This document shows, piece by piece, positions 3,637-64,000 of a stretch of 64,000 nt of DNA (position 1 is its first letter; every line of letters begins with the position of its first letter). The notes under the pieces were generated by a model. It was given only the letters and a program-made list of their open reading frames with translations. It did no database searches and was not told where the DNA came from. Position numbers and translations under genes: made by a program. Source of the stretch: an uncultured Gammaproteobacteria bacterium (GTDB lineage Bacteria; Patescibacteriota; Microgenomatia; Daviesbacterales; UBA10151); the NCBI GenBank assembly GCA_964504665.1, contig CAZDEH010000003.1:1140-65139 (forward strand), given 5' to 3'.

Positions 3637-4391
3637 GCTTTTCTAACTACAATCATCACTTTATTTATACCATCTATAGGTTGATGATAACCAGTAGGAT
3701 AATCTCTGATAGCGCGATAAAATATTTGTTCAGGGTACCTATACAGTTCCCCTTCTTTAATGCCTGGATCATTAGTAATAATTTCACCCTTTGTATCATC
3801 AAATCCCCGCACCACAATATTGTGCCTTTCCGGACCAGGAGGAGTAAAATGAGGATTGTTTAAAGCTTGTCCATTAGCTGGTACTATGACCAAATTTCCC
3901 TTGATAATCTCCGTTTTAATATCTTCCAGTGTGATATTATCCCTCACTTCAAATTGATCATAGTTGAAATAGCCTGAAATCAATCTGTTGGCAGTATCTT
4001 TCGTAGATGTATCCCTAAATTCCTGATATTTTTCACTTTGATATGCTGACATCGCTAAAATTTCCTCGCGAGCTTTGGCTTTATCAATTGTTAATCCTTT
4101 AGCCCAAAAAACAACCAACAGAGCTGCTGCTTCTTCACATCCATCCTGAAACCTAGGGTCTTTCCACTCAGCAAAGGGAGCTTGGGGGGCAAAAGGAACA
4201 TTTTCAATTAGAATCTGGGATTGACGAGTTATAGTTGGTTTTATCTGGGTTAATGTAACTGTTGGCATTAGTGTTGGCGTTGGTTTTGGTGTTAGTGGGA
4301 TTGGTCTTTCCAAGCTGACTTGCTTTGGTATTATTATATATATGACTACAATCACAAAAATCAACATAAATAACACTAGAAATCTGTTCAT
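3633..4391 (-). CDS. membrane-anchored papain-fold (peptidase C39-like) cysteine peptidase candidate
   Basis: N-terminal TM helix (probable start MNRFLVLFML at 4391), a Pro/Thr linker, then a domain with QDGCEEAAALLV resembling the catalytic Cys region of C39_2-like peptidases common in CPR. Upstream in-frame codons to 4574 would overlap fmt. Confidence 0.4.
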   Translation of the reverse strand: MNRFLVLFMLIFVIVVIYIIIPKQVSLERPIPLTPKPTPTLMPTVTLTQIKPTITRQSQILIENVPFAPQAPFAEWKDPRFQDGCEEAAALLVVFWAKGLTIDKAKAREEILAMSAYQSEKYQEFRDTSTKDTANRLISGYFNYDQFEVRDNITLEDIKTEIIKGNLVIVPANGQALNNPHFTPPGPERHNIVVRGFDDTKGEIITNDPGIKEGELYRYPEQIFYRAIRDYPTGYHQPIDGINKVMIVVRKA

Positions 4392-4431
4392 TTTATGGAT
4401 AATATCATTTTTCTGGTAAAATATCCCATAT

Positions 4432-5286
4432 ATGAAAAAACCTAAGTTGAAAGTGGTCTTTTTTGGGACACCTGATTTTGTGATTCCGGTTTTAACAACT
4501 TTAATCAAAAATTTTGATGTTGTTGGAGTTGTGACTGCACCAGATAAAGCAGTTGGCAGAAAACAAATCCTCACTCCCTCACCAATTAATTTAGCCTCAC
4601 AAGCCGAGGGCTTGCGAGGCTATAATCTTAAAATATTTACTCCCGAAAAATTAGATGAGGAGTTAGCCAAAAAAATATATAAATTAAAATCTGATCTATT
4701 TGTAATGGCTTCTTATGGCAAAATTATTCCACAATTTATTTTAGATATTCCCAAATTTGGTGCTATCAATATCCACCCGTCACTACTACCAAAGTACCGA
4801 GGACCTTCTCCCATCCAATCTGCTATTTTAAATGGTGATAAAATTTCCGGGATTTCCATTATGAAGATGGATGCCAAAATGGACCATGGACCTGTTATTT
4901 ATGCAGAAGAGTTTAGATTATCAAGTCTAGATAATTTTCAAACTTTGAGTATAAATATGTTTCTTCGTTCTGCCGAAATTTTATCTAAAATAATTACCGC
5001 ATTTATAAGCGGTAAATTAATTCTTACATCACAAGACGATATAAAAGCTACTTATTGTAAGTTGGTTACTAAAGAAGATGGATATTTTGATATTGATAAT
5101 CCTGCCTCTCCAGTAAAATTAGATCAAATGGTCAGAGCCTATTATCCCTGGCCCACAGCTTGGACTAAGTGGGAAGGTAAAATTGTTAAATTTTTACCAG
5201 GAAATATGGTCCAGCTAGAAGGCAAAAAGCCAGTTCAATTAGAAGATTTCTTAAGAGGTTATCCTAATTTCCCGTTAAAATCCTGA
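4432..5286 (+). CDS. fmt: methionyl-tRNA formyltransferase
   Basis: KVVFFGTPDFVIPVL N-terminus; NIHPSLLPKYRG plus a formyltransferase SLD-like motif; def-fmt neighbourhood. Contains an in-frame GC-rich palindrome (4592-4622). Confidence 0.85.
   Translation: MKKPKLKVVFFGTPDFVIPVLTTLIKNFDVVGVVTAPDKAVGRKQILTPSPINLASQAEGLRGYNLKIFTPEKLDEELAKKIYKLKSDLFVMASYGKIIPQFILDIPKFGAINIHPSLLPKYRGPSPIQSAILNGDKISGISIMKMDAKMDHGPVIYAEEFRLSSLDNFQTLSINMFLRSAEILSKIITAFISGKLILTSQDDIKATYCKLVTKEDGYFDIDNPASPVKLDQMVRAYYPWPTAWTKWEGKIVKFLPGNMVQLEGKKPVQLEDFLRGYPNFPLKS
4592..4622. repeat. REP-like GC-rich palindrome, family A (tagcctcacaagcc-gag-ggcttgcgaggcta), in-frame inside fmt, encoding LASQAEGLRG
   Basis: Imperfect inverted repeat seen directly; same core (gcctcgcaagg...ccttgcgaggc) at 28989-29017 and 48006-48035, all in the same codon phase. 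Confidence 0.7.
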
Positions 5287-6287: not shown

Positions 6288-7394
6288 TTATCGGAGACCT
6301 TCTAGTAACATAGAGTAGAACCTGAGATTGTGGATTGTAGCTAACCTAATAGATAAAACGTCCTGGATTTTAAATAAATGATGTAAATAGGCACGGGAAT
6401 ATTCCCTACAGGTTAAACAATCACAAAATTTACTGACTGGATCCATCGATTTTTCATATTTAGCGCTCCCAAAGTATAAGTTCGAGTAACAACTTCCTTC
6501 AATTAATCCTTGTTTAGTAGGAAGTTTGGTAAAAACGTATAACTTTTTATGGCGGGCTTCCCGGGTTGGGATCACGCAGTCAAAGATTCCATAACCCCAA
6601 CCAACACAGTCAACAATATTTTCCGGTCTACCCACCCCCAAAGCATATTTTGGTTTATTGTCTGGTAATAATGAGGCTGTATACTTTACAATTTCAGACA
6701 AAAATTTCCCATCAGCAACCGGAAAACCACCAAAACAATAACCATCAAAGCCAATTTTGATCAGCTCTTTAGCACAATATTTCCTTAAATTTTTATCATT
6801 TCCACCCTGAACAACTGCAAAAAGAAGAGGTTTAGCCTTGCAAGGATACACCTTGCGAAGCTGGGGCTGGCTAGTAGTTAATTTATTAAACTCATCTTTT
6901 GACCTTTTTGCCCACTTAATAGTCCTTTCTACTGAAATTTTTTGTTCATCAAATGAGCATTCCGGCTTAGTACAATCATCCAAAACTATAGCTATATCTG
7001 TACCCAACCGTAGTTGTAACTGAATTGATTTTTCAGGAGTCAGAACTATTTTTTGTGCTCCATTTGGCTTAAAAATAATTTCTTTATCCCTGATAACTCC
7101 AAATTGTGGATTATCATGGATCAAAGACATTACCTGGAAGCCCCCAGAATCGGTTATGATGGGTCTTGTCCACCTCATAAAGTAGTGAATACCGTCAAAA
7201 CTTTTAATTCTTTGGCTGAGTGCATCTGATAACAGATGATAGGTATTAATAACTAAACCCTCAACCTGAGCATTTTCTAAATCCGTGGCATCAACTCCCC
7301 TTACTACTCCCCTTGTTCCATCAGGGAAAAAGGTAGGCAGAGTTATTTGACCATGAAGAGTCTGTAAGTGACTTAAGCAACTGGATGAGAACAT
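6288..7394 (-). CDS. tgt: queuine tRNA-ribosyltransferase (tRNA-guanine transglycosylase)
   Basis: DSGGFQV, ALGVGRPE, FDCVIPTR and the zinc motif CDCLTCREYSRAYLHHL. Confidence 0.85.
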   Translation of the reverse strand: MFSSSCLSHLQTLHGQITLPTFFPDGTRGVVRGVDATDLENAQVEGLVINTYHLLSDALSQRIKSFDGIHYFMRWTRPIITDSGGFQVMSLIHDNPQFGVIRDKEIIFKPNGAQKIVLTPEKSIQLQLRLGTDIAIVLDDCTKPECSFDEQKISVERTIKWAKRSKDEFNKLTTSQPQLRKVYPCKAKPLLFAVVQGGNDKNLRKYCAKELIKIGFDGYCFGGFPVADGKFLSEIVKYTASLLPDNKPKYALGVGRPENIVDCVGWGYGIFDCVIPTREARHKKLYVFTKLPTKQGLIEGSCYSNLYFGSAKYEKSMDPVSKFCDCLTCREYSRAYLHHLFKIQDVLSIRLATIHNLRFYSMLLEGLR

Positions 7395-13594: not shown

Positions 13595-13666
13595 GCCGAT
13601 GTAGCTCAGAAGTAGAGCAGACGCTTTGTAAGCGTAAGGTCGAGATTGCGATATTCTCCATCGGCT
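13595..13666 (+). tRNA. tRNA-like gene, anticodon UGU (Thr), atypical
   Basis: Perfect 7-bp acceptor stem (GCCGATG/CATCGGC) and D-arm TAGCTCAG..GAGC; anticodon loop TTTGTAA. The D-loop lacks GG and the T-loop reads TGCGATA rather than TTCRANY, so this may be a pseudo-tRNA or unusual tRNA. Confidence 0.5.
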
Positions 13667-31167: not shown

Positions 31168-31189
31168 CCTCCAAGGAGAGTCCTTGGAG
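31168..31189. repeat. REP-like family B palindrome (cctccaagg-agagt-ccttggag) 40 nt upstream of the RAYT-like gene start
   Basis: Perfect 9-bp arms seen directly. Confidence 0.7.
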
Positions 31190-31227: not shown

Positions 31228-31914
31228 ATGCCTGCAAGAAACGCCATAAAACAATATCAGGAAAATGGATATTATCATCTTTATAATAGAGGTGTGGAAA
31301 AGAGGATTATCTTTCTGGACTCCCAGGATTATGGTGTATTCCTCTCTTATCTGAAAGAGTATCTTCTTCCTAAAGATGATGTTGGTTTGAGTAAACAACT
31401 CTCAAATTCCAATATTACTCCTAGAGAAAAGGATAAGATTCTTAAAGCTCTTAGATTAAATAATTTTTTTGGCGAAATAACCTTATTCACCTACTGCCTA
31501 ATGCCTAATCATTTTCACCTATTGATTAGACAAAAAAGTGCTGGTTCAATTAATAAATTTATGAGATCAATCGGAACAAGATACACCATGTATTTTAATA
31601 AAAAATATAAAAGGGTTGGAGCTCTCTGCCAGGCAGTGTACAAAGCAGTACTCATAGAAAATAACAACCAACTATTACACCTTAGCAGATATATTCATAA
31701 ACAATCCTTAGCTTCGCAAGGAGAGTCCTTGGAGGCACAACCATGCTCATATTTTGATTATCTTGGTAAAAGAAAAACTGAATGGGTAAAACCAGAAGAA
31801 ATTTTAGCCTATTTTTCTTCCACAAATCCCTTCCTCTCCTACCAAGCTTTTGTAGAAGAGAAAGATGATGAACTAATTCCCCACAAACTCCTTTTAGAAG
31901 AAGGCTGGCCATAA
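31228..31914 (+). CDS. HUH/Y1 transposase family protein (IS200/IS605 TnpA-like, REP-associated tyrosine transposase-like), paralog 1
   Basis: GYYHLYNRGVEKR (YHV.NRG-like), HUH motif MPNHFHLL, Tyr region RYIHKQ; ATG at 31228 lies downstream of the REP; paralog of 36343-37017. Confidence 0.65.
   Translation: MPARNAIKQYQENGYYHLYNRGVEKRIIFLDSQDYGVFLSYLKEYLLPKDDVGLSKQLSNSNITPREKDKILKALRLNNFFGEITLFTYCLMPNHFHLLIRQKSAGSINKFMRSIGTRYTMYFNKKYKRVGALCQAVYKAVLIENNNQLLHLSRYIHKQSLASQGESLEAQPCSYFDYLGKRKTEWVKPEEILAYFSSTNPFLSYQAFVEEKDDELIPHKLLLEEGWP
31707..31732. repeat. REP-like A/B hybrid palindrome (gcttcgcaagg-agagt-ccttggaggc) inside the RAYT-like CDS, encoding LASQGESLEA
   Basis: Seen directly; the left arm is family-A-like and the right arm family-B-like. 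Confidence 0.6.
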
Positions 31915-34970: not shown

Positions 34971-35237
34971 ATGAAAGAAGATTTTTTGAGAACTACTGAA
35001 AATGTTTTAAAAGAAGGACCTCCATTAGAATGGTACTATGGATTTGGAAGAAAAGATGCTGGAATTACACATATAGATTATTCAGATATCTTTAGACAAT
35101 CTTTTAATGGAAGATTAGATCGCTATTTTGGGCAGTGGTCTCATATTGGTGTCATGCCAAGGGTTTTTGGAATTCCTGAAGGAGAAGAAGATCAATATGA
35201 ACAGTTAATTATGCAACTGCATGTACAAGATCTATAA
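34971..35237 (+). CDS. hypothetical small protein
   Basis: ORF only. Confidence 0.3.
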   Translation: MKEDFLRTTENVLKEGPPLEWYYGFGRKDAGITHIDYSDIFRQSFNGRLDRYFGQWSHIGVMPRVFGIPEGEEDQYEQLIMQLHVQDL

Positions 35238-35270
35238 GATATCTGGATTTTGGCCTGAAGAAATCGTACA

Positions 35271-36185
35271 TTCTAGGTGGAAGTGCACCACTTGCTTAGG
35301 ATAATACCTCCATCATTTTCTCATATGGTGTCAAGTATCCCAGACATTTTCTGGGAGTTGAATTTAATCTGTACTCCAACTCCTTGATCTGATCCTCTGT
35401 TAAATTATCCAGACTCAACCTTTTAGGAATGAATCTTCTTATCCTGCCATTAGTATTTTCAACTGTCCCTTTCTCCCAGGAATGGTAGGCATGACAGAAA
35501 AACATAGATAATTTAAGTTTACTGGCAATCTCCTGATGGTTGGTATTTTCTGCTCCATTGTCAGCTGTTAAAGTTACTCTGGGAAAAGTAGCCAATCTTT
35601 CAATTAAGCTTTCTGTTTTAGACTCAGCAGATCTACTGGTAAGAGATAATATCGTCAGTCTTGTTAACCTTTCAACTGTCACAGACAAGGCAGTTTTATC
35701 TGTCTGTTTACCAATAACATTATCTGTTTCCCAGTCTCCAACCCTGGATCTTAAGCTGACTGTCTCAGGTCTTAAATCAATACTGACTGCAAAGGGTATT
35801 TTTGAGGCTCTTTGAACCCTTCTACCCATCTTTTTCATCCTCTTTTTCCTGGCATGAGGTAGTAGTTTCCAAAGATTATATCTTTTTGATTTCTTTGAAT
35901 AAATGTACTGGTAAATTGCCTCAGTACAAATACTTTCACCAGGATGTATCTTTGGTAATCTTCCACTAATTTCCTCCGGAGTCTAGCTAAATGGAGCTCT
36001 TAAATGTTCCCTGACAAAACTTGAATGGGATCTGCCTAATCTTTTAGCAATATCCCGAAGAGATAATCCAGCCTCTTTAAAAGCTACTAATTTTTCTCTT
36101 TCTTCCAAACTTAGATGTTTATATTTATTCATTAAGTGCACCTCCTTCCCCAGGTATGAATTTTACTCTAGGTGGTGCACTTCGT
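35271..36185. mobile_element. degenerate IS30-family insertion sequence (~0.9 kb)
   Basis: DDE transposase with IS30 hallmarks; imperfect terminal inverted repeats sharing the core GAAGTGCACCAC (35280-35291 and, as reverse complement, 36172-36183); direct tctaggtgg at both ends. Confidence 0.6.
35296..36132 (-). pseudogene. IS30-family transposase, disrupted by an in-frame TAG (35983-35985) and missing ~50 aa between the HTH and DDE regions
   Basis: N-terminal HTH (LSLEEREKLVAFKEAGLSLRDIAKRLGRSHSSFVRE), then TAG, then TPEEISGRLPKIHPGESICTEAIYQYIY, GDWETD, TADNGAE, HSWEKGTVENTNGRIRRFIPK. Confidence 0.65.
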
Positions 36186-36284
36186 TTTAGAATCTATGAA
36201 TAGTAGGAAAAAAGATGCTCTTTTAATAATTTATGAAGGACTAGAATCTGCTCCATTTCAAGTCTTATTAATAAATTGATTTGT

Positions 36285-36309
36285 GCCTCCAAGGGGACGC
36301 CTTGGAGGT
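36285..36309. repeat. REP-like family B palindrome (gcctccaagg-ggacg-ccttggaggt), 5' flank of the RAYT-like gene
   Basis: Seen directly; an identical 23-nt copy at 37039-37061. Confidence 0.75.
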
Positions 36310-36342
36310 TGACATTTCTCACAGTCATGCTATTTTATATAT

Positions 36343-37017
36343 ATGCCCAGCAAAAATTCCATCAAACAGTATACAGAAAATAGCTATTATCATATCTATA
36401 ATCGAGGAGTTGAGAAAAGAAAAATTTTTCTTGATGAACAAGATTATGGAGTATTCCTCTCCTATCTTAAAGAATACCTTTTATCAAAAGATGAAAAAGA
36501 CTTATTAAATCAACTTTCTATTCCAACTATCTCTGCTCAAGAAAGGGACCGGGTACTTAAAAAACTTAGACTGAACAATTTTGCTGATGAAATAACTTTG
36601 TTAGCTTATTGTTTGATGCCGAATCATTTTCACTTCTTTATTAAGCAAAAAAACGAAAAGTCCATTGATAAGTTTATGAATTCCCTCTTAACTAGATATA
36701 CTATGTATTTTAATAAAAAATATAAACGAGTTGGGGCTTTATATCAGGATGTTTATAAAGCAGTTACGGTTGACCGCGAAGATCAATTTCTTTATCTTAC
36801 TAAATATATTCATAAACAGGCTTTAAAAACCCACAAAAGACAACCGTCTTCCCTACCTGATTATCTTGGAAACAGAAAAACTGAATGGGTTCACCCCGAA
36901 GAAATATTAGCTTATTTTTCCAAAACCAAACCCTCTCTTAGTTATAAAGATTTCCTTGATCTAGAAGAATCTGAAGATCTATTAACTATCCAAGACTTAA
37001 TGATTGATATCAAATAA
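36343..37017 (+). CDS. HUH/Y1 transposase family protein (RAYT/IS200-like), paralog 2
   Basis: SYYHIYNRGVEKR, MPNHFHFF (HUH), KYIHKQ; flanked by identical palindromes. Confidence 0.65.
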   Translation: MPSKNSIKQYTENSYYHIYNRGVEKRKIFLDEQDYGVFLSYLKEYLLSKDEKDLLNQLSIPTISAQERDRVLKKLRLNNFADEITLLAYCLMPNHFHFFIKQKNEKSIDKFMNSLLTRYTMYFNKKYKRVGALYQDVYKAVTVDREDQFLYLTKYIHKQALKTHKRQPSSLPDYLGNRKTEWVHPEEILAYFSKTKPSLSYKDFLDLEESEDLLTIQDLMIDIK

Positions 37018-37038
37018 CTCTCCACTCTCCCTCTTCAT

Positions 37039-37061
37039 GCCTCCAAGGGGACGCCTTGGAG
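37039..37061. repeat. REP-like family B palindrome (gcctccaagg-ggacg-ccttggag), 3' flank of the RAYT-like gene
   Basis: Identical to 36285-36307. Confidence 0.75.
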
Positions 37062-37063
37062 AT

Positions 37064-38059
37064 TCATTTTCCTTTTCCTTTGATTTTTCTCCACACTAAA
37101 TTTAAATCAAACTTAAGAAAATATAACGAGGCAGTTCCTAAGATTGCCAGAACTATCAGCGTCAAGATATGGGCAAAAACTGTGCCTGCTGAAGCAACAT
37201 CAGCATTAATACCTAACACACCTCCAAATACTGCTAAACCTGCTGCTTCAGCTGAACCAATAAAACCAGGGGCAGATGGCATTAAATAGGTAAAAGCATT
37301 TAAGGCGTTACCCAAAATTCCCTGACTTAAACTAAAATCAGGCATAAATTGACGGAAACAGACCAGCATTAAAAATCCATCTGAGGTTGCCGCCAAAAAA
37401 CTTAAGAATATAAATAAAGCTAGTTCTTTGGGATGACGATCTAAGACTTCAAACCCTTCAATAATTGTCACACTAAAATTAACGAATTTTTGCTTCAAAC
37501 TTGGGAATATTAAAACTCCGCTGACAAGCTTTATTAGTTTTTTGAGATTATGTGATTTTTTAACAGCCATGGTTAATAGAACCATTAAAACAATAAAAAT
37601 CAGTGAAATTACTTTGAAAAAATCAGCAGGTAAATTTGTTGGCACAAAATTAATAAATACCACCACTATCATGACAAACGTTAGAAAATCCATGAAACGG
37701 TCGATAAATATCCAAGTTAAAGTTTTAGCAAAAGGAACTTTAAATTGATGTGATAAATAAACGCTTTTAGCAATCTCCCCTGCCCTGATAGGAATCAGCA
37801 GAGATAAAAACTGACTCAAAAAATTTAACAGCCATAAATCTTTCCAAGCCAAATTTGGTATATTAAGTATTTTTTGGAGTCTTAAGGCCTTAAACCCTGC
37901 GGAAGCCACAAAGAACAATAAGAAAGGAAAAATTACACTCGGGCTGGCTGAAAACACTTTGGCCAAAACATCACCTAAATTAACAAACCTACTCCAAATA
38001 ATAATCAGCACAACACCTAAAATGGTGTTTAAAACAATCTTGGGAAGAATTTGCCTCAT
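37064..38059 (-). CDS. UPF0104/lysylphosphatidylglycerol-synthase-TM-like (flippase-like) membrane protein
   Basis: 8-TM protein; N-terminal KIVLNTILGVVLIIIWSRFVNLGDVL...FKALRLQKIL pattern typical of the family. Confidence 0.45.
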   Translation of the reverse strand: MRQILPKIVLNTILGVVLIIIWSRFVNLGDVLAKVFSASPSVIFPFLLFFVASAGFKALRLQKILNIPNLAWKDLWLLNFLSQFLSLLIPIRAGEIAKSVYLSHQFKVPFAKTLTWIFIDRFMDFLTFVMIVVVFINFVPTNLPADFFKVISLIFIVLMVLLTMAVKKSHNLKKLIKLVSGVLIFPSLKQKFVNFSVTIIEGFEVLDRHPKELALFIFLSFLAATSDGFLMLVCFRQFMPDFSLSQGILGNALNAFTYLMPSAPGFIGSAEAAGLAVFGGVLGINADVASAGTVFAHILTLIVLAILGTASLYFLKFDLNLVWRKIKGKGK

Positions 38060-38100
38060 CTGGAGATTATACTTTATTTGTGCTAATCTTAAAATAAACT

Positions 38101-39066
38101 ATGCCAGGCTTAACAAAAACTCAGATCATTGGTTTGATCGGTTTCTTATTAATATTAATCAGCATCCCAATTTCCTTCTCTTTAGCCAAGAGATCCCAAA
38201 TTTTCCGCTCCCGGGCATCTGAATTAAAAACTACTGCTACAACCACCGGAACAGTTTCCGGAACAGTGACAAAATCCCGCGAAGTTCCTGCTTCTTCCCC
38301 CCTGACTGATTTACAAAAATTACTACAGGGAGAATCCCCAACCCCAGACAGTACTACAAACCCAAGTATTTCCCCTACTCCCACATCTGAAGTTAGCCTG
38401 GCTTTCGGGCCAACTTTAAATCTTAAGGTTTCTATCGAAGGTAGGCCTGAAGCTAAACAATCAGATAGAATATTTATCGGTATTGCTTCAAACAGTACTG
38501 CTCCCCCAACATACATTTTGACTTTCACTATCGATATGCCTGATTCAGGAATATTTAAAGGTATCTCCCTGGCAGGTCTAAATCCGGGTTCTCAGTATAC
38601 AGCTTTTATCAAAGGAACATCACAAATTGACGTTTCCTCAACTTTTACCATGGATCCAACAGAAAGCAATCTTAATAATGATCAACCAATAACCTTAATT
38701 TCCGGTGACTTAAATGAGGATAATACTATCAATACTACAGATTATTCTCTTGCCCAAAACCTATATGGCACTACATCATCTTCCAGTAATTGGAATGCCC
38801 GAGCTGATTTTAACAAGGATAATATAATTAATAACTATGACCTGGCTATTATTTCTAAAAATATAGGCAAAGCAGGAGCATCTGGATCCTGGATTTCTTC
38901 CCCAAGGCCATCTACCCAATCAGCCTCATTAACTACTAAACCAGGTGTGGGTGGTCCACCTACAAATTTTGGTGATCTACTTTTATCATCCAGCCCCTCT
39001 GCCTCACCTACAGAACCATCTAATAATACTTCTAATTCTTCTAGTTATTGGCTACGGGTTCCATAA
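38101..39066 (+). CDS. membrane-anchored secreted protein with dockerin-like Ca-binding repeats
   Basis: GDLNEDNTINTTDYSL ... ADFNKDNIINNYDLAII (dockerin type I-like pair); Ser/Thr/Pro-rich. Confidence 0.45.
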   Translation: MPGLTKTQIIGLIGFLLILISIPISFSLAKRSQIFRSRASELKTTATTTGTVSGTVTKSREVPASSPLTDLQKLLQGESPTPDSTTNPSISPTPTSEVSLAFGPTLNLKVSIEGRPEAKQSDRIFIGIASNSTAPPTYILTFTIDMPDSGIFKGISLAGLNPGSQYTAFIKGTSQIDVSSTFTMDPTESNLNNDQPITLISGDLNEDNTINTTDYSLAQNLYGTTSSSSNWNARADFNKDNIINNYDLAIISKNIGKAGASGSWISSPRPSTQSASLTTKPGVGGPPTNFGDLLLSSSPSASPTEPSNNTSNSSSYWLRVP

Positions 39067-47872: not shown

Positions 47873-49063
47873 ATGAAAATAGGTTTTGATGGATCCCGTG
47901 CTTTTTTCAATAATAAGACCGGCACGGAAAATTATTCCTTTCAACTCTTAAAACACCTAGCTAAAATTGACAGTAAAAACCAATATATCATTTATTTAAG
48001 ACCTTTAGCCTCGCAAGGACCAGCCTTGCAAGGCTGGCCGACTAATTTCCATTTTACTATGATTCCTTATTCAAGACTATGGACTCAATTTGGCTTAGCT
48101 CAACAAACTTTTAAAGATAAAATTGATGTGCTATTTGTTCCTGCCCACACACTCCCCTTAATTAGAAAACCCGGACTTAAAACTGTAGTCACAGTACATG
48201 ACTTAGGTGCAGAGTACTTACCACAAACTCATCAATTAAAACAAAGGGTATATTTAAAATTGATAACTGATTTTCAACTTAAATCTGCCGGATATCTTAT
48301 TGCCGTATCAAGGAATACTAAAGATGATCTGGTGAAAAAAGTCCATATTAATCCTAATAAAATCACTGTTATATATGAAGGATATGATAAAACAGCATTT
48401 AAACCCTTAAAAACTGATGAATTAAAAGATACTTTAAACTATTACGATTTAGAAAGAGATAGATATTTCTTATTTGTGGGAACCATCCAACCAAGAAAGA
48501 ATTTAGAAAGGTTAATTAAAGCTTTTGCTAATTTTTTAGCGGGTGGTGCGAGCCGGGGCGCCCCATATTTTTATTATGGGGCTGGCGAGCAACAGGACCC
48601 GTTAAAGCCCCGAACAAAAAAAATACAACTTATCCTAACTGGTTCTAAAGGTTGGCTTTCAGAAGAAATTTATGAACTTCCTAAAAAGCTTGGTATCGAA
48701 AATCAAGTGAAGTTTTTAGGCTATGTTCCTGACAAGAATTTACCGGCGCTTTACAGCGGAGCTACCGCCTTACTTTTCCCTTCCTTATTTGAAGGTTTTG
48801 GACTACCTCTACTTGAAGCTATGGCTTGTGGAACACCGGTTTTAACATCTAATCTTTCTTCTATGCCGGAGATTTCAGGAAAAGCAGCACTCCTTGTAGA
48901 TCCTTACTCTGAAGAACAAATCGCGCAAGGAATTAATAGGCTATTTTACGATCAAAAACTAAAAAATCAGCTGAAAAAACTGGGAATTGCGCAAGCCCAA
49001 AAATATTCCTGGGAAAGATGTGCTGAGGAAACCTTAAAACTACTTGAAGCTACTTCAGATTAA
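47873..49063 (+). CDS. GT4-family glycosyltransferase carrying two in-frame GC-rich inserts
   Basis: EGFGLPLLEAMACGTPV (GT4 E-x7-E region); inserts at 48006-48035 (LASQGPALQG) and 48540-48613 (AGGASRGAPYFYYGAGEQQDPLKPRT). Confidence 0.75.
   Translation: MKIGFDGSRAFFNNKTGTENYSFQLLKHLAKIDSKNQYIIYLRPLASQGPALQGWPTNFHFTMIPYSRLWTQFGLAQQTFKDKIDVLFVPAHTLPLIRKPGLKTVVTVHDLGAEYLPQTHQLKQRVYLKLITDFQLKSAGYLIAVSRNTKDDLVKKVHINPNKITVIYEGYDKTAFKPLKTDELKDTLNYYDLERDRYFLFVGTIQPRKNLERLIKAFANFLAGGASRGAPYFYYGAGEQQDPLKPRTKKIQLILTGSKGWLSEEIYELPKKLGIENQVKFLGYVPDKNLPALYSGATALLFPSLFEGFGLPLLEAMACGTPVLTSNLSSMPEISGKAALLVDPYSEEQIAQGINRLFYDQKLKNQLKKLGIAQAQKYSWERCAEETLKLLEATSD
48006..48035. repeat. REP-like family A palindrome in-frame in the GT4 gene (tagcctcgcaagg-accag-ccttgcaaggct)
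   Basis: Seen directly. Confidence 0.7.
48540..48613. repeat. GC-rich element family C (gggtggtgcgagccggggcgccccat ... atggggctggcgagcaacaggaccc), in-frame in the GT4 gene
   Basis: Near-identical arms recur at 56326-56400 with a different central segment. Confidence 0.7.
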
Positions 49064-56294: not shown

Positions 56295-56325
56295 AAATTA
56301 ATCATAACATATATACGATGGGTGG

Positions 56326-56400
56326 TGCGAGTCGGGGCGCCCCATCGAACACCCGCAACGAAGTGAGGATGTCGGATGGGGCTGACGAGCAATAGGACCC
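56326..56400. repeat. GC-rich element family C, intergenic copy (atgggtggtgcgagtcggggcgccccat ... atggggctgacgagcaataggacccat)
   Basis: Both arms match 48540-48613 with 3-4 substitutions. Confidence 0.7.
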
Positions 56401-56401
56401 A

Positions 56402-57394
56402 TCATTTTTTTGATAATTTCCATACCCCTACTCCCAACATTAAATAATACCCTATCCACATCAATATCCCTGTTTGGTTAATATTAATACTGGCCCCAGG
56501 TATTTTGGAAAATAGCTGAACGATATAAATAAAGTAGGTCAGTAAAATTCCCGGTATTAAACCCACAATTTGACCCAAGAGTTGACTGATCAAACCTAAA
56601 ATCATAGCCACAAAACCTGAAATCATCACGATTGGCACACTCCAAAGAACTAAACTATTTGTAAGGAGTCCTGCAATAGAAATTTGATTAAAATTATAGG
56701 CAATCACTGGTAATACCATCAGTTGAGCAGCTAAAGTTACGGCAAAATCTTCTCTCATTAGCTTGGGGATCTTTTTTATAGCTTCAGAAAAAATTGGAGC
56801 TACCACTATTACTCCAAATGTAGCCAGAAAACTGAGCTGAAAAGAAATATTTAGCAACCAATTTGGTTGATAAAGTAACATCAGGCCTCCGGTAAACAGT
56901 AAAATCCACCAACCAGTTCCCTCCCTGCCTAACAGCTTTCCTGTATAGGAGAGTCCTGCCATAATAGCCGCCCTAACTACCGGCACTCCAAAGCCTGTTA
57001 ACACACTATAAAATATAATTACTCCTAAAGTGAATATTATTGTTTTTCTCCTGCCTAATAAACTTACCAGACTCATGACAAATCCTGCCAAAATAGTTAA
57101 ATTTTGACCTGAAACTACCACAATATGAATGGTTGAAGTTATCTGTAATTGCTTTTTAAAATAAAATGGTAAACTCGACTGATTCCCTAAAATAATGCCT
57201 GAAAGTAGGGCTGACTGAGGATAAGGTAAGATACGGTCAATAGTTTGAGATAGCGACGATCTAAGAGGCAAAAATAGCTGAACACCTTCTTCTTTATAAG
57301 TGGGGTCAACTCCCCCAATTTGGATTACCCTAAAACTAAATAATATAGCCCAAATTATGATAATCCCAATAATAACCTTGTACATTGTTACCAA
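56402..57394 (-). CDS. comEC: ComEC/Rec2-family competence channel protein (TM core only)
   Basis: SALLSGIILGNQSSLP...IHIVVVSGQNLTILAG (Competence domain); adjacent to comEA. Confidence 0.65.
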   Translation of the reverse strand: MVTMYKVIIGIIIIWAILFSFRVIQIGGVDPTYKEEGVQLFLPLRSSLSQTIDRILPYPQSALLSGIILGNQSSLPFYFKKQLQITSTIHIVVVSGQNLTILAGFVMSLVSLLGRRKTIIFTLGVIIFYSVLTGFGVPVVRAAIMAGLSYTGKLLGREGTGWWILLFTGGLMLLYQPNWLLNISFQLSFLATFGVIVVAPIFSEAIKKIPKLMREDFAVTLAAQLMVLPVIAYNFNQISIAGLLTNSLVLWSVPIVMISGFVAMILGLISQLLGQIVGLIPGILLTYFIYIVQLFSKIPGASININQTGILMWIGYYLMLGVGVWKLSKK

Positions 57395-61609: not shown

Positions 61610-64000
61610 TTAGATAACAATGTTAAATATTTTACCCGGAACGTAAATTATTTTTTTGATAGAGTTTTCTCTAATATATTTGTCAATTTTTGGTAATTTT
61701 AAGACCATTTCTTCAATGATTTTTTTATTATTTACTATATCTTTTTGTATCAAAATGTTTTCCCGTAGTTTACCGTTTATCTGTATAACCAAAATGGTCT
61801 GTTCATCTTCCAGGTATTTTTTATCAAATTCAGGCCAGGGTTGGTTATGGATAGAATACTTATTCCCCATTATCTCCCACAGTTCTTCAGTAATAAACGG
61901 CGCTATTGGAGATAACATAATCAGCAGCTTTTGAATGGTATCTTTGGAGGCTGTTTTTTGTCTGGATAGAAAGTTTAATAGCTCCATTAGACTTGCCACA
62001 ACAGTATTGTATCGCAGGTTTTCAAAATCATTATCAGTTTTTTCGATAGTTTTGTTCAAAATTCTCTTTTCTTCTTCTGTCGCCTCAATATCTTTATAAT
62101 TTTGTACTAAACCCCACACCCTGTTAAGAAAACGATAGGTTCCATTTAAACCGTCATCCCGGAAATCACCCCCACCAGTAAATGGTCCCATAAACATTAG
62201 ATAGGCTCTGAATACATCGGCTCCCCAATCTTTAATGTATTTATCAGGCACAACTACATTACCTTTAGATTTACTCATTTTAGCTCCGTCTTTAATAATT
62301 AAACCGTGAGCCCTAAATTTTGTGAATGGTTCTTCGAAATCAATAAATCCCAGATCCTTAAAAGCCATGGTGATAAACCGCGAGTAAAGCAAGTGAAGAA
62401 CTGAGTGCTCTGCCCCACCAATATACATATCTACAGGCAGCCATTTCTTAGTTCTACTGTCATCAAAAAATTTGTCATCTAAATCCGTGGTTAAATATCT
62501 AAAAAAATATAAAGCTGAGTCAAAAAAATTATCCGATACATCAGTCTCACGCCTGGCTTTTCCCCCACACTTAGGGCAAGTAGTATTAACAAAATCTGGA
62601 TCTGAAGCTAAAGGCCCTAAACCTGTACCCGTAGGCTTAAAATCTTTAACATAAGGCAACTCTACTGGCAAATCTTTTTCCGGCACGGGCTGGGTTCCAC
62701 ACTTATCGCAGTAAATTATTGGAATTGGTGGACCCCAATACCTTTGCCTGGAAATTAACCAATCACGCAGATGATATTGAATTTTAATTGAGCCCAGATG
62801 ATGCTCTACGAGATAGTTTGTTATCTTCTCTCTCGCTTCCGGGGAATTCATACCATTATACTCTCCGCTATTAACAAGTACTCCTTCACCCTCATAAGCT
62901 TCTTCTGATATCTCAGCTTCACAAGGTGTATCCTTGCGAAGCTGAATAACAGTTTGGATGGGTAAATTATATTTCTTAGCAAACTCAAAATCCCTTTGAT
63001 CGTGTGCCGGAACAGCCATAATTGCGCCTGTTCCATAACCCATCAACACATAATCAGCCACCCACACAGGAATGTCTTTCCCAGTGAGAGGATTTTTAAC
63101 AAATGTACCTGTAAAAATACCTGTTTTTTCCTTATCTCCTTGGCGTTCAATATCAGATTTTTCCTTGGCTGCTTGAACATAATCTGAAACTTTGCCTTTC
63201 TGCTCTTTAGTAACTAGTTGATCTATTTTTGGGTATTCCGGACTAATAACCAAGAAAGTTGCTCCAAAAACAGTATCCGGCCTGGTAGTAAACACTTCTA
63301 ATTCGCCGAATTTTATTAAGGCTCCCTCTGATTTTCCTATCCAATTGCGCTGAGCTGTTTTGACTAATTCCGTCCAGTCTAAGGAATCTATATTTAAAAG
63401 CAGTTTTTCTGCATAATCTGTGATCTTTAGAAACCATTGGTCCACTTCTTTTTGAACCATTGTTCAAGTTCTTTTTTCGTCACCCGAGAAGAACATCTCT
63501 CACACTCTCCGGAAATAACCTGCTCATCAGCGAGTACTGTCAGACATGATGGACACCAATTTACCTCTGCTCTTTTCCGGTAAGCCAATCCCTTTTTATA
63601 TAGCTGAAGAAAAGCCCACTCCGTCCATTTGTAATAGTTTGATTTATATGTATCGACTGTTTTCTGCCAATCAAAAGCATTCCCAATTAATAAAAACTGC
63701 TCATAAAAATGCTTTTCTGTTCTTTTACTCACCTCCATTGGATGCTCATTTATTTTCATTGCATAATTTTCGCCATGAATTCCAAAACCATCCAGGCCAA
63801 TAGGTTCAAATACATCATACCCTTGTAGCCTTTTAAACCTGGAGTAAACATCTGATCCTGTAAAAGCATACATATTACCTACATGCATACCCTCAGCTGA
63901 AGGATAAGGAAACATCATCAGAGAATAATATGGTTTTTTTGATTCATCTAAATCAGGGCTAAATAGACCATCTTCTTTCCACTTTTTTGCCCATTTAGGT
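61610..64000 (-). CDS. leuS: leucyl-tRNA synthetase, split by a frameshift near 63430-63475; N-terminus extends beyond the window
   Basis: FPYPSAEGMHVGN (HIGH), CERCSSRV, then WFLKITDYAEKLL in the second ORF; KMSKS at MSKSKGN; upstream frame remains open to nt 64000. Confidence 0.8.

Follow-up and report, generated by a model that had tools for sequence, protein, structure and literature searches.

A Y1/HUH transposase-like gene bounded by identical palindromes in a Microgenomates bacterium and its resemblance to REP-associated tyrosine transposases

A gene encoding a homologue of Y1/HUH single-strand DNA nuclease-transposases was found between two identical 23-nt palindromes, designated U (upstream) and D (downstream), in a 64-kb stretch of contig CAZDEH010000003.1; this whole stretch is referred to as the window. 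On balance, we favour the view that U and D are cognate hairpin sites of the enclosed nuclease, and that they make up, with the gene, a cassette of the type known for REP-associated tyrosine transposases (RAYT; REP, repetitive extragenic palindrome), inherited vertically and representing a domesticated relative of IS200 transposases. A Pfam match and a structural model identify the protein as a Y1/HUH enzyme. Comparison among homologous loci supports a specific tie between the flanking palindromes and the Y1 gene, since the arrangement recurs in 14 loci and the loops of the palindromes co-vary within a locus, and a domesticated RAYT-like gene appears to fit the sequences better than an active insertion sequence (IS). 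By analogy with characterized enzymes, we infer that this gene family may bind and cleave the hairpins. The components of the cassette in the window, and the gene that adjoins it, are as follows.

36285..36307, + strand: upstream palindrome U; 35 nt between its end and the ATG; abuts the TTGACA box
36309..36336, + strand: predicted sigma-70-type promoter (TTGACA, 16-nt spacer, TATTTT, TG before the -10 hexamer)
36343..37017, + strand: Y1/HUH single-strand DNA nuclease-transposase homologue, 224 aa; HuH residues H95/H97, catalytic Tyr Y155, Gln Q159 (YIHKQ)
37039..37061, + strand: downstream palindrome D, identical to U; 21 nt past the Y1 stop codon
37064..38059, minus strand: flippase-like gene, convergent with the Y1 gene

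The 23-mer GCCTCCAAGGGGACGCCTTGGAG has two exact copies in the whole window, at 36285-36307 and 37039-37061 and both on the + strand; an exact search thus agreed with the first-pass annotation, which had pointed out the pair. The copies lie in direct rather than inverted orientation at a distance of 754 nt from start to start, and their identity runs one base further to the left (T), giving 24 nt. Allowing up to three mismatches brought up no further match to GCCTCCAAGGGGACGCCTTGGAG in the window, and the expectation from 100 dinucleotide-preserving shuffles was zero. The stem of U, CCTCCAAGG/CCTTGGAGG, is perfectly paired over 9 bp and encloses the loop GGACG (single-stranded DNA fold, -10.2 kcal/mol); D forms an 8-bp stem (-8.2 kcal/mol). 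The bases at the palindrome edges are tgtGCCTCC and catGCCTCC, without a 5' GT[AG]G foot. An origin of the pair by chance or artefact was rejected, with zero matches expected in the shuffles and the identical sequence present in independent assemblies.

The predicted promoter next to U agrees with the consensus at 10 of 12 positions and is the best promoter-like site of the region. D, which ends 2 nt short of the convergent flippase-like gene's stop codon, was the only terminator-like site of the region in a simple scan, and on the + strand only (tail ATTCATTTTC; 0.7 such sites expected by chance); the same scan found no T-run beside D on the minus strand or beside U. D probably helps to end the Y1 transcript, and U probably insulates or regulates the promoter that it abuts. 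The first-pass annotation had placed the start of the flippase-like gene 3 nt after the right palindrome: the coordinate is correct, but the gene is on the minus strand and it is its stop codon end that lies there. The accompanying proposal that the right palindrome serves as a terminator is plausible for the + strand Y1 gene but not for the minus-strand flippase-like gene, which has no T-run. No Rfam match was obtained in 35200-38200 at E<=1.

The Y1 open reading frame (ORF) is intact. The expected 224-aa HUH/Y1 gene was indeed found between the palindromes, with NSYYHIYNRG and LMPNHFHFF both present, and its identity was established by a match to Pfam Y1_Tnp (PF01797) above the cutoff (52.8 bits against 23, E 5.3e-14) and by structural comparison. 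A PDB search with the single sequence of the Y1 protein gave no match; a profile of 30 homologues weakly matched ISDra2 TnpA, the best PDB sequence match, with NHFH aligned to DHVH and KYIHKQ to KYIESQ in the Y132 region. An AlphaFold (AF2) model built on the alignment reached a pLDDT of 87.4, and its top Foldseek match was 4er8 (the E. coli RAYT with a REP hairpin), followed by 2f4f, 2xqc and 2a6o, which are IS200, ISDra2 and IS608 TnpA structures (all at probability 1.00); structural alignments to distant relatives had 9-17% identity. H95, H97, Y155 and Q159 are invariant across 29-30 homologues, and the protein ends in a conserved C-terminal tail of 65 aa with a serine-containing motif, QPSS.

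Of the 8,000 candidates that were scored, 7,936 proved to be significant relatives; the 120 closest homologues shared 64-77% amino acid identity. The names attached to the sources of the homologues were Daviesbacteria, Levybacteria, Microgenomates or 'Patescibacteria'. A search of 2.9 million viral contigs gave a single relative, at 25% identity, and a phage origin is disfavoured on that ground.

Homologous loci were gathered through exact protein look-up and DNA pattern scans, and the cassette loci were L004, L005, L006, L025, L032, L033, L034, L040, L042, L046, L052, L053, L054 and both Y1 genes of the window. The palindrome flanked the Y1 gene in 14 of 14 homologous loci, with a shared design in which a stem ending in CAAGG is followed by a 5-nt loop and by CCTTG, and with U starting about 47-53 nt before the ATG. 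Wherever a -35 box was recognisable, U was fused to CTTGAC(A); in seven aligned upstream regions the palindrome with CTTGAC was the sole conserved block, CTTGAC being invariant. On the 3' side of the gene the palindrome alone was conserved across loci, and a palindrome at the D position is kept in L032, L042, L046, L004, L025, L052, L053 and L054. D lies at or just past the stop codon in many loci, where it is a third palindrome, since most loci also carry an internal one (I) at exactly nt +489 of the coding sequence, in frame and between the Tyr motif and QPSS, encoding for example ALASQGxxLQG or CLQGDALEV. The sites were distributed as follows.

U, I and D: L004, L032, L052, L053, L054
U and I: L005, L006, L033, L034 and the window paralogue at 31228..31914
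U and D, with I lost or decayed: the window gene, L025, L042, L046
U and a decayed I: L040, whose contig ends before the stop codon, so that D is not scorable

The linker between the Y motif and QPSS was bimodal among the 120 closest proteins (4-7 residues in 22, 11-19 residues in 85), and therefore about three quarters of the closest homologues keep I. The linker of the window gene, ALKTHKR, belongs to the short class, I having been lost; its closest relative, P0002 at L032, keeps I with the same GGACG loop as the window gene. The internal palindrome looks ancestral to the family. In 12 of 14 loci all loops of the locus were the same, and at least eight different loops occurred between loci (GGACG, AGAGT, CCACG, ACCAA, CCAGG, TCTCT, TGAGA and CCTCG); the exceptions were L053, with different loops at its three sites, and L052, with an inverted internal loop. 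Loop bases were also conserved between orthologues. The co-variation of coding and non-coding loops argues for a link at the DNA level, whether the protein of the locus recognises both copies or copy-correction keeps them alike.

At L052, a Levybacteria Y1 locus, two 23S_rRNA_IVP/bAvd-like small genes and a HicA toxin lie nearby (197-601 and 4374-4619) in a mobile- or accessory-looking setting.

A paralogous cassette with its own palindromes was found in the window, 5 kb upstream of the gene at 36343..37017.

31168..31189, + strand: upstream palindrome of the paralogue, CCTCCAAGG-AGAGT-CCTTGGAG, then TCTTGACA
31228..31914, + strand: paralogous Y1/HUH gene, 228 aa, 63% amino acid identity to the gene at 36343..37017 (Pfam Y1_Tnp, 41 bits)
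31709..31740, + strand: internal palindrome of the paralogue, in frame, encoding LASQGESLEA directly after the Tyr motif; loop AGAGT as in the upstream copy

The loci L032 (73% amino acid identity) and L033 (77%) share the gene order of the window, namely rplA, Y1, a convergent flippase-like gene and a dockerin-type gene; the cassette has therefore held its position over substantial divergence. Near-identical duplicates of the cassette were not seen, the 90% protein clusters comprising 1-6 sequences on 1-5 contigs. Across the phylum, the cassette was found in many different gene neighbourhoods. Conserved position, low copy number and diverged paralogues are the criteria of Bertels et al. 2017 (PMC5581495) for RAYT versus IS200, and in the partial genomes at hand low copy number, diverged paralogues (two, 63% identical) and vertical inheritance (synteny) were all observed. 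The first-pass annotation had gone further in suggesting an 'active or recently active' system, which the data do not bear out: the 23-mer occurs only at this gene in 64 kb, and there is no sign of recent movement, because the orthologues at 73-77% are syntenic and the paralogue is only 63% identical. The ancestor of the cassette was probably an IS200-like element, since direct identical hairpins bound a single Y1 gene, conservation ends at the hairpins and the neighbourhoods vary; the whole cassette may still move on rare occasions.

Where L032 and L033 have a HopA1-like gene, the window has a degenerate IS30 copy, with the following parts.

35264-36199: degenerate IS30-family element, bounded by imperfect inverted repeats of 28 nt (35264-35291 and 36172-36199)
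35296..35838, minus strand: IS30 transposase fragment, C-terminal
35983..36141, minus strand: IS30 transposase fragment (HTH_38)

This copy lies 86 nt to the left of U, and its involvement was judged incidental because it is missing from the syntenic L032 and L033 despite the same palindromes there.

Relatives of the palindrome are also dispersed away from Y1 genes, mostly within genes rather than between them. Five sister-type palindromes of the form AGCCTCGCAAGG-N5-CCTTGCGAGGCT were located in the window, all in frame inside long housekeeping genes. The sister type has one extra stem base pair and symmetrical feet (TTAG...CTAA), and it flanks the Y1 genes of L005 and L006. The motif CAAGG-N5-CCTTG was observed 8 times in the window against 0.025 expected, and the overall palindrome density is 9 copies per 64 kb.

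4592..4620: in fmt (methionyl-tRNA formyltransferase), GCCTCACAAGC-CGAGG-GCTTGCGAGGC, in frame
6833..6861: in tgt (tRNA-guanine transglycosylase, TGT), GCCTTGCAAGG-ATACA-CCTTGCGAAGC, in frame, variable loop
28989..29017: in a gene of the PBP1A type (PBP, penicillin-binding protein), transglycosylase domain, GCCTCGCAAGG-ATCAA-CCTTGCAAGGC, in frame
48006..48034: in a GT4 glycosyltransferase gene, GCCTCGCAAGG-ACCAG-CCTTGCAAGGC, in frame
62914..62942: in the editing domain of leuS (leucyl-tRNA synthetase, LeuRS), GCTTCACAAGG-TGTAT-CCTTGCGAAGC, reverse complement of the tgt copy, in frame

A scan of a genome collection (GTDB representatives) gave no match carrying the window's pair of copies, and about 15 of its 24 matches, in unrelated phyla, look like chance. 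One Patescibacteria metagenome-assembled genome, CTOTU11699, holds 8 copies of GTGCCTCCAAGG-TCTCT-CCTTGGAGGCACG on 7 contigs, of which 2 flank a Y1 gene with inverted loops, 4 are intergenic near ORF ends and 2 overlap ORFs. A metagenome scan for the window 22-mer returned 14 stretches, 4 beside Y1 genes (1 being the window locus) and 10 without a Y1 gene. In 7 of these 10 the 22-mer lies in frame inside long ORFs, which were assigned by sequence inspection, not by hidden Markov models (HMM), to release factor 2 (RF2; two cases), LeuRS (two cases), an RluD-like pseudouridine synthase, a class-A beta-lactamase-like protein and TGT. Five stretches came from one Hainich groundwater sample at 3-4x coverage (4 without a Y1 gene, together with Y1 locus L046), which is consistent with one genome holding the cassette and at least four dispersed copies. 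Uniqueness of the palindrome to this locus had been named in the first-pass annotation as a sign against a REP/RAYT reading; it holds within the window, where the 23-mer is found only at the gene, but not for the lineage, in whose other members the 22-mer is dispersed.

Palindromes at the same site in different organisms were noted in RF2 (L038:684-705 and L048:3810-3831) and in the LeuRS C-terminal region (L044:713-734 and L049:6589-6610), and a TGT loop carries palindromes of different subtypes at the same site in L047:167-188 and at window 6833-6861. The shared RF2, LeuRS and TGT positions may be either hot spots or especially permissive sites.

The intragenic palindromes are lineage-specific, being absent from the approximately 118 PBP and 20 TGT orthologues examined. 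Their effect on the length of the host protein was determined against orthologues or solved structures.

LeuRS editing domain (window): 27 residues where other LeuRS have 25-28, 0 to +2 aa
PBP1A: +2 aa; right arm coincides with native LQGG codons
LeuRS C-terminal site (L044): 22 residues, the mode elsewhere being 21
Fmt: +5 aa against solved Fmt structures
TGT: +5 to +9 aa against orthologues
LeuRS C-terminal site (L049): +6 aa through arm duplication (LEALEA)

A clean 30-nt insertion, which predicts +10 aa, was rejected by the spacing between conserved anchors in LeuRS, PBP1A, Fmt and TGT. In several cases one arm of the palindrome overlaps family-native codons (LQG, LA.., LEA), which suggests that the palindromes were built onto existing half-sites or written over existing sequence. 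Accumulation in situ of a single motif, in the manner of an uptake sequence, is disfavoured; isolated half-sites occur at chance level in the window, and the unit is therefore the whole hairpin. It is conceivable, if doubtful, that hairpins are written in frame into essential genes (leuS, prfB, tgt, fmt, PBP1A and an rluD-like gene) by a lineage-wide, vertically inherited Y1/HUH nuclease of Microgenomates, through codon replacement or half-site build-up and not by simple insertion.

Tandem arm duplications were observed beside palindromes at L005:7780-7860, where gctagcttcgcaagt occurs twice before the upstream copy, and at L041:2767-2805 and L049:6589-6627, which read CTGGAGGC(A/T)CTGGAGGC. 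They may be traces of several rounds of nicking and repair at the foot of the hairpin.

The E. coli-type REPtron literature reportedly includes work by Nunvar from 2010 and by Ton-Hoang and Messing from 2012. As a REPtron reference for the present comparison, the E. coli-type RAYT/TnpA-REP, class 2 of TnpA-Y1, was taken from Quentin et al. 2018 (PMC6006769). Like a REPtron, the cassette consists of a low-copy, positionally stable Y1/HUH gene flanked by copies of a short, GC-rich palindrome with further occurrences elsewhere in genomes, and the best structural match is 4er8. Its NHFH, length, QPSS tail and HuH-to-Y spacing of 58-60 aa across the family, inside the median range of 58-67 aa, are class 2-like, and the Y---Q signature is class 1 (IS200)-like (PMC6006769). 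In the window gene and its 120 closest relatives the Y motif has the form YIH[KRQ]Q, with Q at +4 in 105 of 107 anchorable closest homologues and YIHRN in 1. Because the 63%-identity relatives L040, L042 and L046 have the class 2 motif YIHRNP, YIHKQ is tentatively read as a derived state in a class 2-like lineage. Unlike those of a REPtron, the palindromes of the window cassette are fixed relative to the gene, one being fused to a promoter, and the dispersed copies are mostly inside genes; the host belongs to the Microgenomates of the candidate phyla radiation (CPR), which is not among the subclass taxa of Table 1 of PMC6006769.

With the TnpA of IS200/IS605 elements (IS200, IS608, ISDra2; class 1.1) the cassette shares a single Y1 gene between two similar same-strand hairpins, and Y---Q. 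The upstream hairpin before the promoter presumably recalls the left-end terminator hairpin of IS200. It differs in that the window cassette is without multiple identical copies and without tnpB, has conserved synteny and belongs to a family with an extra in-frame internal hairpin; the protein has 224 aa with a C-terminal tail against a class median of 152 aa, and its HuH motif is NHFH against DH[VI]H (PMC6006769). Subclass 2.4 (Bertels group 4) has double-foot REPs and in-frame REP insertions inside tnpA-REP (PMC6006769), and insertions of REPs in coding regions are cited in the same source as its ref. 36. The cassette resembles this subclass in an in-frame palindrome inside the transposase gene, in a HuH motif of the NH[IFV]H type and in sister palindromes with symmetrical feet. 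It is unlike it in the position of the internal copy, which is after the Y motif at fixed nt +489, whereas 2.4 insertions are variable and lie between HuH and Y; the foot is TTAG against GT[AG]G and the W motif YQ against WQ (PMC6006769).

Rickettsia palindromic elements are likewise short in-frame palindromic repeats, tolerated in surface-loop regions of housekeeping genes, and we know of no enzyme associated with them. In contrast, the units described here have 22-30 nt and add 0-9 residues, not a whole inserted module; one arm often equals native codons (LQG, LEA), and the palindromes are linked to a Y1 gene. In the literature that was searched, no paper linked RAYT, REP or IS200 with Patescibacteria/CPR. 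The cassette is REPtron-like in working and IS200-like in layout, and falls short of several criteria of both. It extends known biology, with the three-site geometry and the hairpins in essential genes without length change as the notable parts.

E. coli TnpA-REP and the TnpA of IS608 and ISDra2 have been shown to bind hairpins and to cut and rejoin DNA beside them. On the favoured reading, the enzyme would bind the hairpin extruded from single-stranded DNA, for instance at replication forks, and would cut and rejoin DNA beside it, as these relatives do. Either its activity or selection for recognition would keep local copies identical and seed new copies elsewhere, and U would double as a promoter insulator or regulator and D as a terminator.

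Several observations weigh against this reading. The protein scored 38.9 bits with the NCBIfam REP_Tyr_transpos equivalog, below the cutoff of 80, and the Y motif of the window gene is YIHKQA, not Y---NP. The cassette is without the 5' GT[AG]G foot of a REPtron, and its flanking copies are mostly direct, not inverted, with no REPIN doublets. The 23-mer of the window gene is confined to that gene within 64 kb, and the sister stem GCCTCGCAAGG of the five dispersed copies flanks neither of the Y1 genes of the window. The dispersed copies barely change the length of their host genes, which simple HUH insertion does not predict, and a 9+5+9 perfect inverted repeat beside a -35 box would equally fit a double-stranded operator. 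The RAYT/REP arrangement proposed in the first-pass annotation was accordingly retained in its general form, namely gene-linked palindromes, an HUH enzyme and dispersal in relatives, but not as a textbook REPtron, given the direct copies, the missing foot, the equivalog score and Y---Q.

Alternatively, the window could hold a still-mobile minimal IS200-type element, with U and D as subterminal end hairpins of a 780-bp cassette that moves as single-stranded DNA. Identical direct hairpins around a single Y1 gene are the layout of IS200/IS608, sequence conservation extends past neither palindrome, the neighbourhoods differ among genomes, the window has two paralogues within 5 kb of each other, and the Y---Q signature (PMC6006769) and the best PDB sequence match, ISDra2 TnpA, agree with such an element. 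We nevertheless consider it unlikely: near-identical copies were not seen (paralogues at 63%, 90% clusters of 1-6 sequences), the position is shared with orthologues at 73-77% amino acid identity, no tnpB partner is present, and a third palindrome at a fixed codon inside the coding sequence would be senseless as an IS end. The protein, which has 224 aa and a conserved C-terminal tail, is also longer than IS200 TnpA with its roughly 150 aa (PMC6006769), and the 63% relatives carry the class 2 motif YIHRNP; both points speak against such an element.

It is similarly improbable that the palindromes are purely regulatory and have no catalytic tie to the HUH site, U being a double-stranded operator or a terminator-insulator upstream, D a terminator for both convergent genes and similar sequences elsewhere unrelated. 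In favour of such a role, the arms of U are perfectly inverted around a 5-bp spacer and U joins the -35 box at an invariant CTTGAC junction; D is terminator-like on the + strand, and subclass 2.1 relatives have C-terminal helix-turn-helix (HTH)-like domains (PMC6006769). However, D has no T-run for the minus-strand gene, and in about 75% of the homologues a third copy lies in the coding sequence, where it would be neither operator nor terminator. Loop bases conserved between orthologues and matched within loci are unusual for an operator spacer, and in related organisms the identical 22-mer occurs within several genes, among them leuS, prfB, tgt and an rluD-like gene. A genome-wide signal of the DNA-uptake or replication/repair type, accumulating in coding DNA by drive and merely carried or processed by the Y1 gene, would account for intragenic copies that change length by 0 to +2 aa in leuS, PBP1A and the second leuS site, for preferred reading frames in both orientations and the same permissive sites in different organisms, and for a stem sequence conserved across genera. 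It leaves unexplained the positional link to the Y1 cassette and the locus-specific loops; moreover, half-sites on their own are no more frequent in the window than expected by chance, the unit being the complete hairpin, and the density of 9 copies per 64 kb is modest. We regard this explanation as very unlikely.

Two further features of the window were recorded. A second GC-rich structured repeat occurs at 48541-48600 (inside the GT4 ORF) and at 56320-56402 (intergenic), with conserved outer arms GGGTGGTGCGAG[C/T]CGGGGCGCCCCAT ... ATGGGGCTG[G/A]CGAGCAA[C/T]AGGACCC and a variable apical hairpin of 7 nt or 30 nt; the + strand RNAs share one architecture, with folding energies of -34 and -45 kcal/mol (z -3.7 and -4.5), and Rfam gave no match. 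At 13595-13666, Rfam identified a fifth tRNA (51.9 bits) that was not listed by ARAGORN.

RAYT/REP is the main example of a domesticated bacterial transposase and has been studied almost only in Proteobacteria and Cyanobacteria. The gene-plus-hairpins layout described here is conserved across many ultra-small groundwater bacteria, whose genomes we take to be about 1 Mb in size. Useful traits of this family are that it is very large and highly conserved, with hairpins at fixed positions in the cassette and dispersed copies in essential genes. Annotators should neither list the Y1 gene as an active IS nor treat the palindromes as assembly artefacts. The geometry of U, I and D together with the locus-specific loops offers a direct handle on recognition specificity, and intragenic copies with almost no length change pose a mechanistic question about the birth of palindromes. 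If hairpins are indeed written into essential genes by the Y1/HUH nuclease, this would represent an undescribed way in which a domesticated transposase edits a genome in short patches templated by hairpins, or else a hairpin-based signal system that serves the host, in the setting of tiny genomes with almost no intergenic space.

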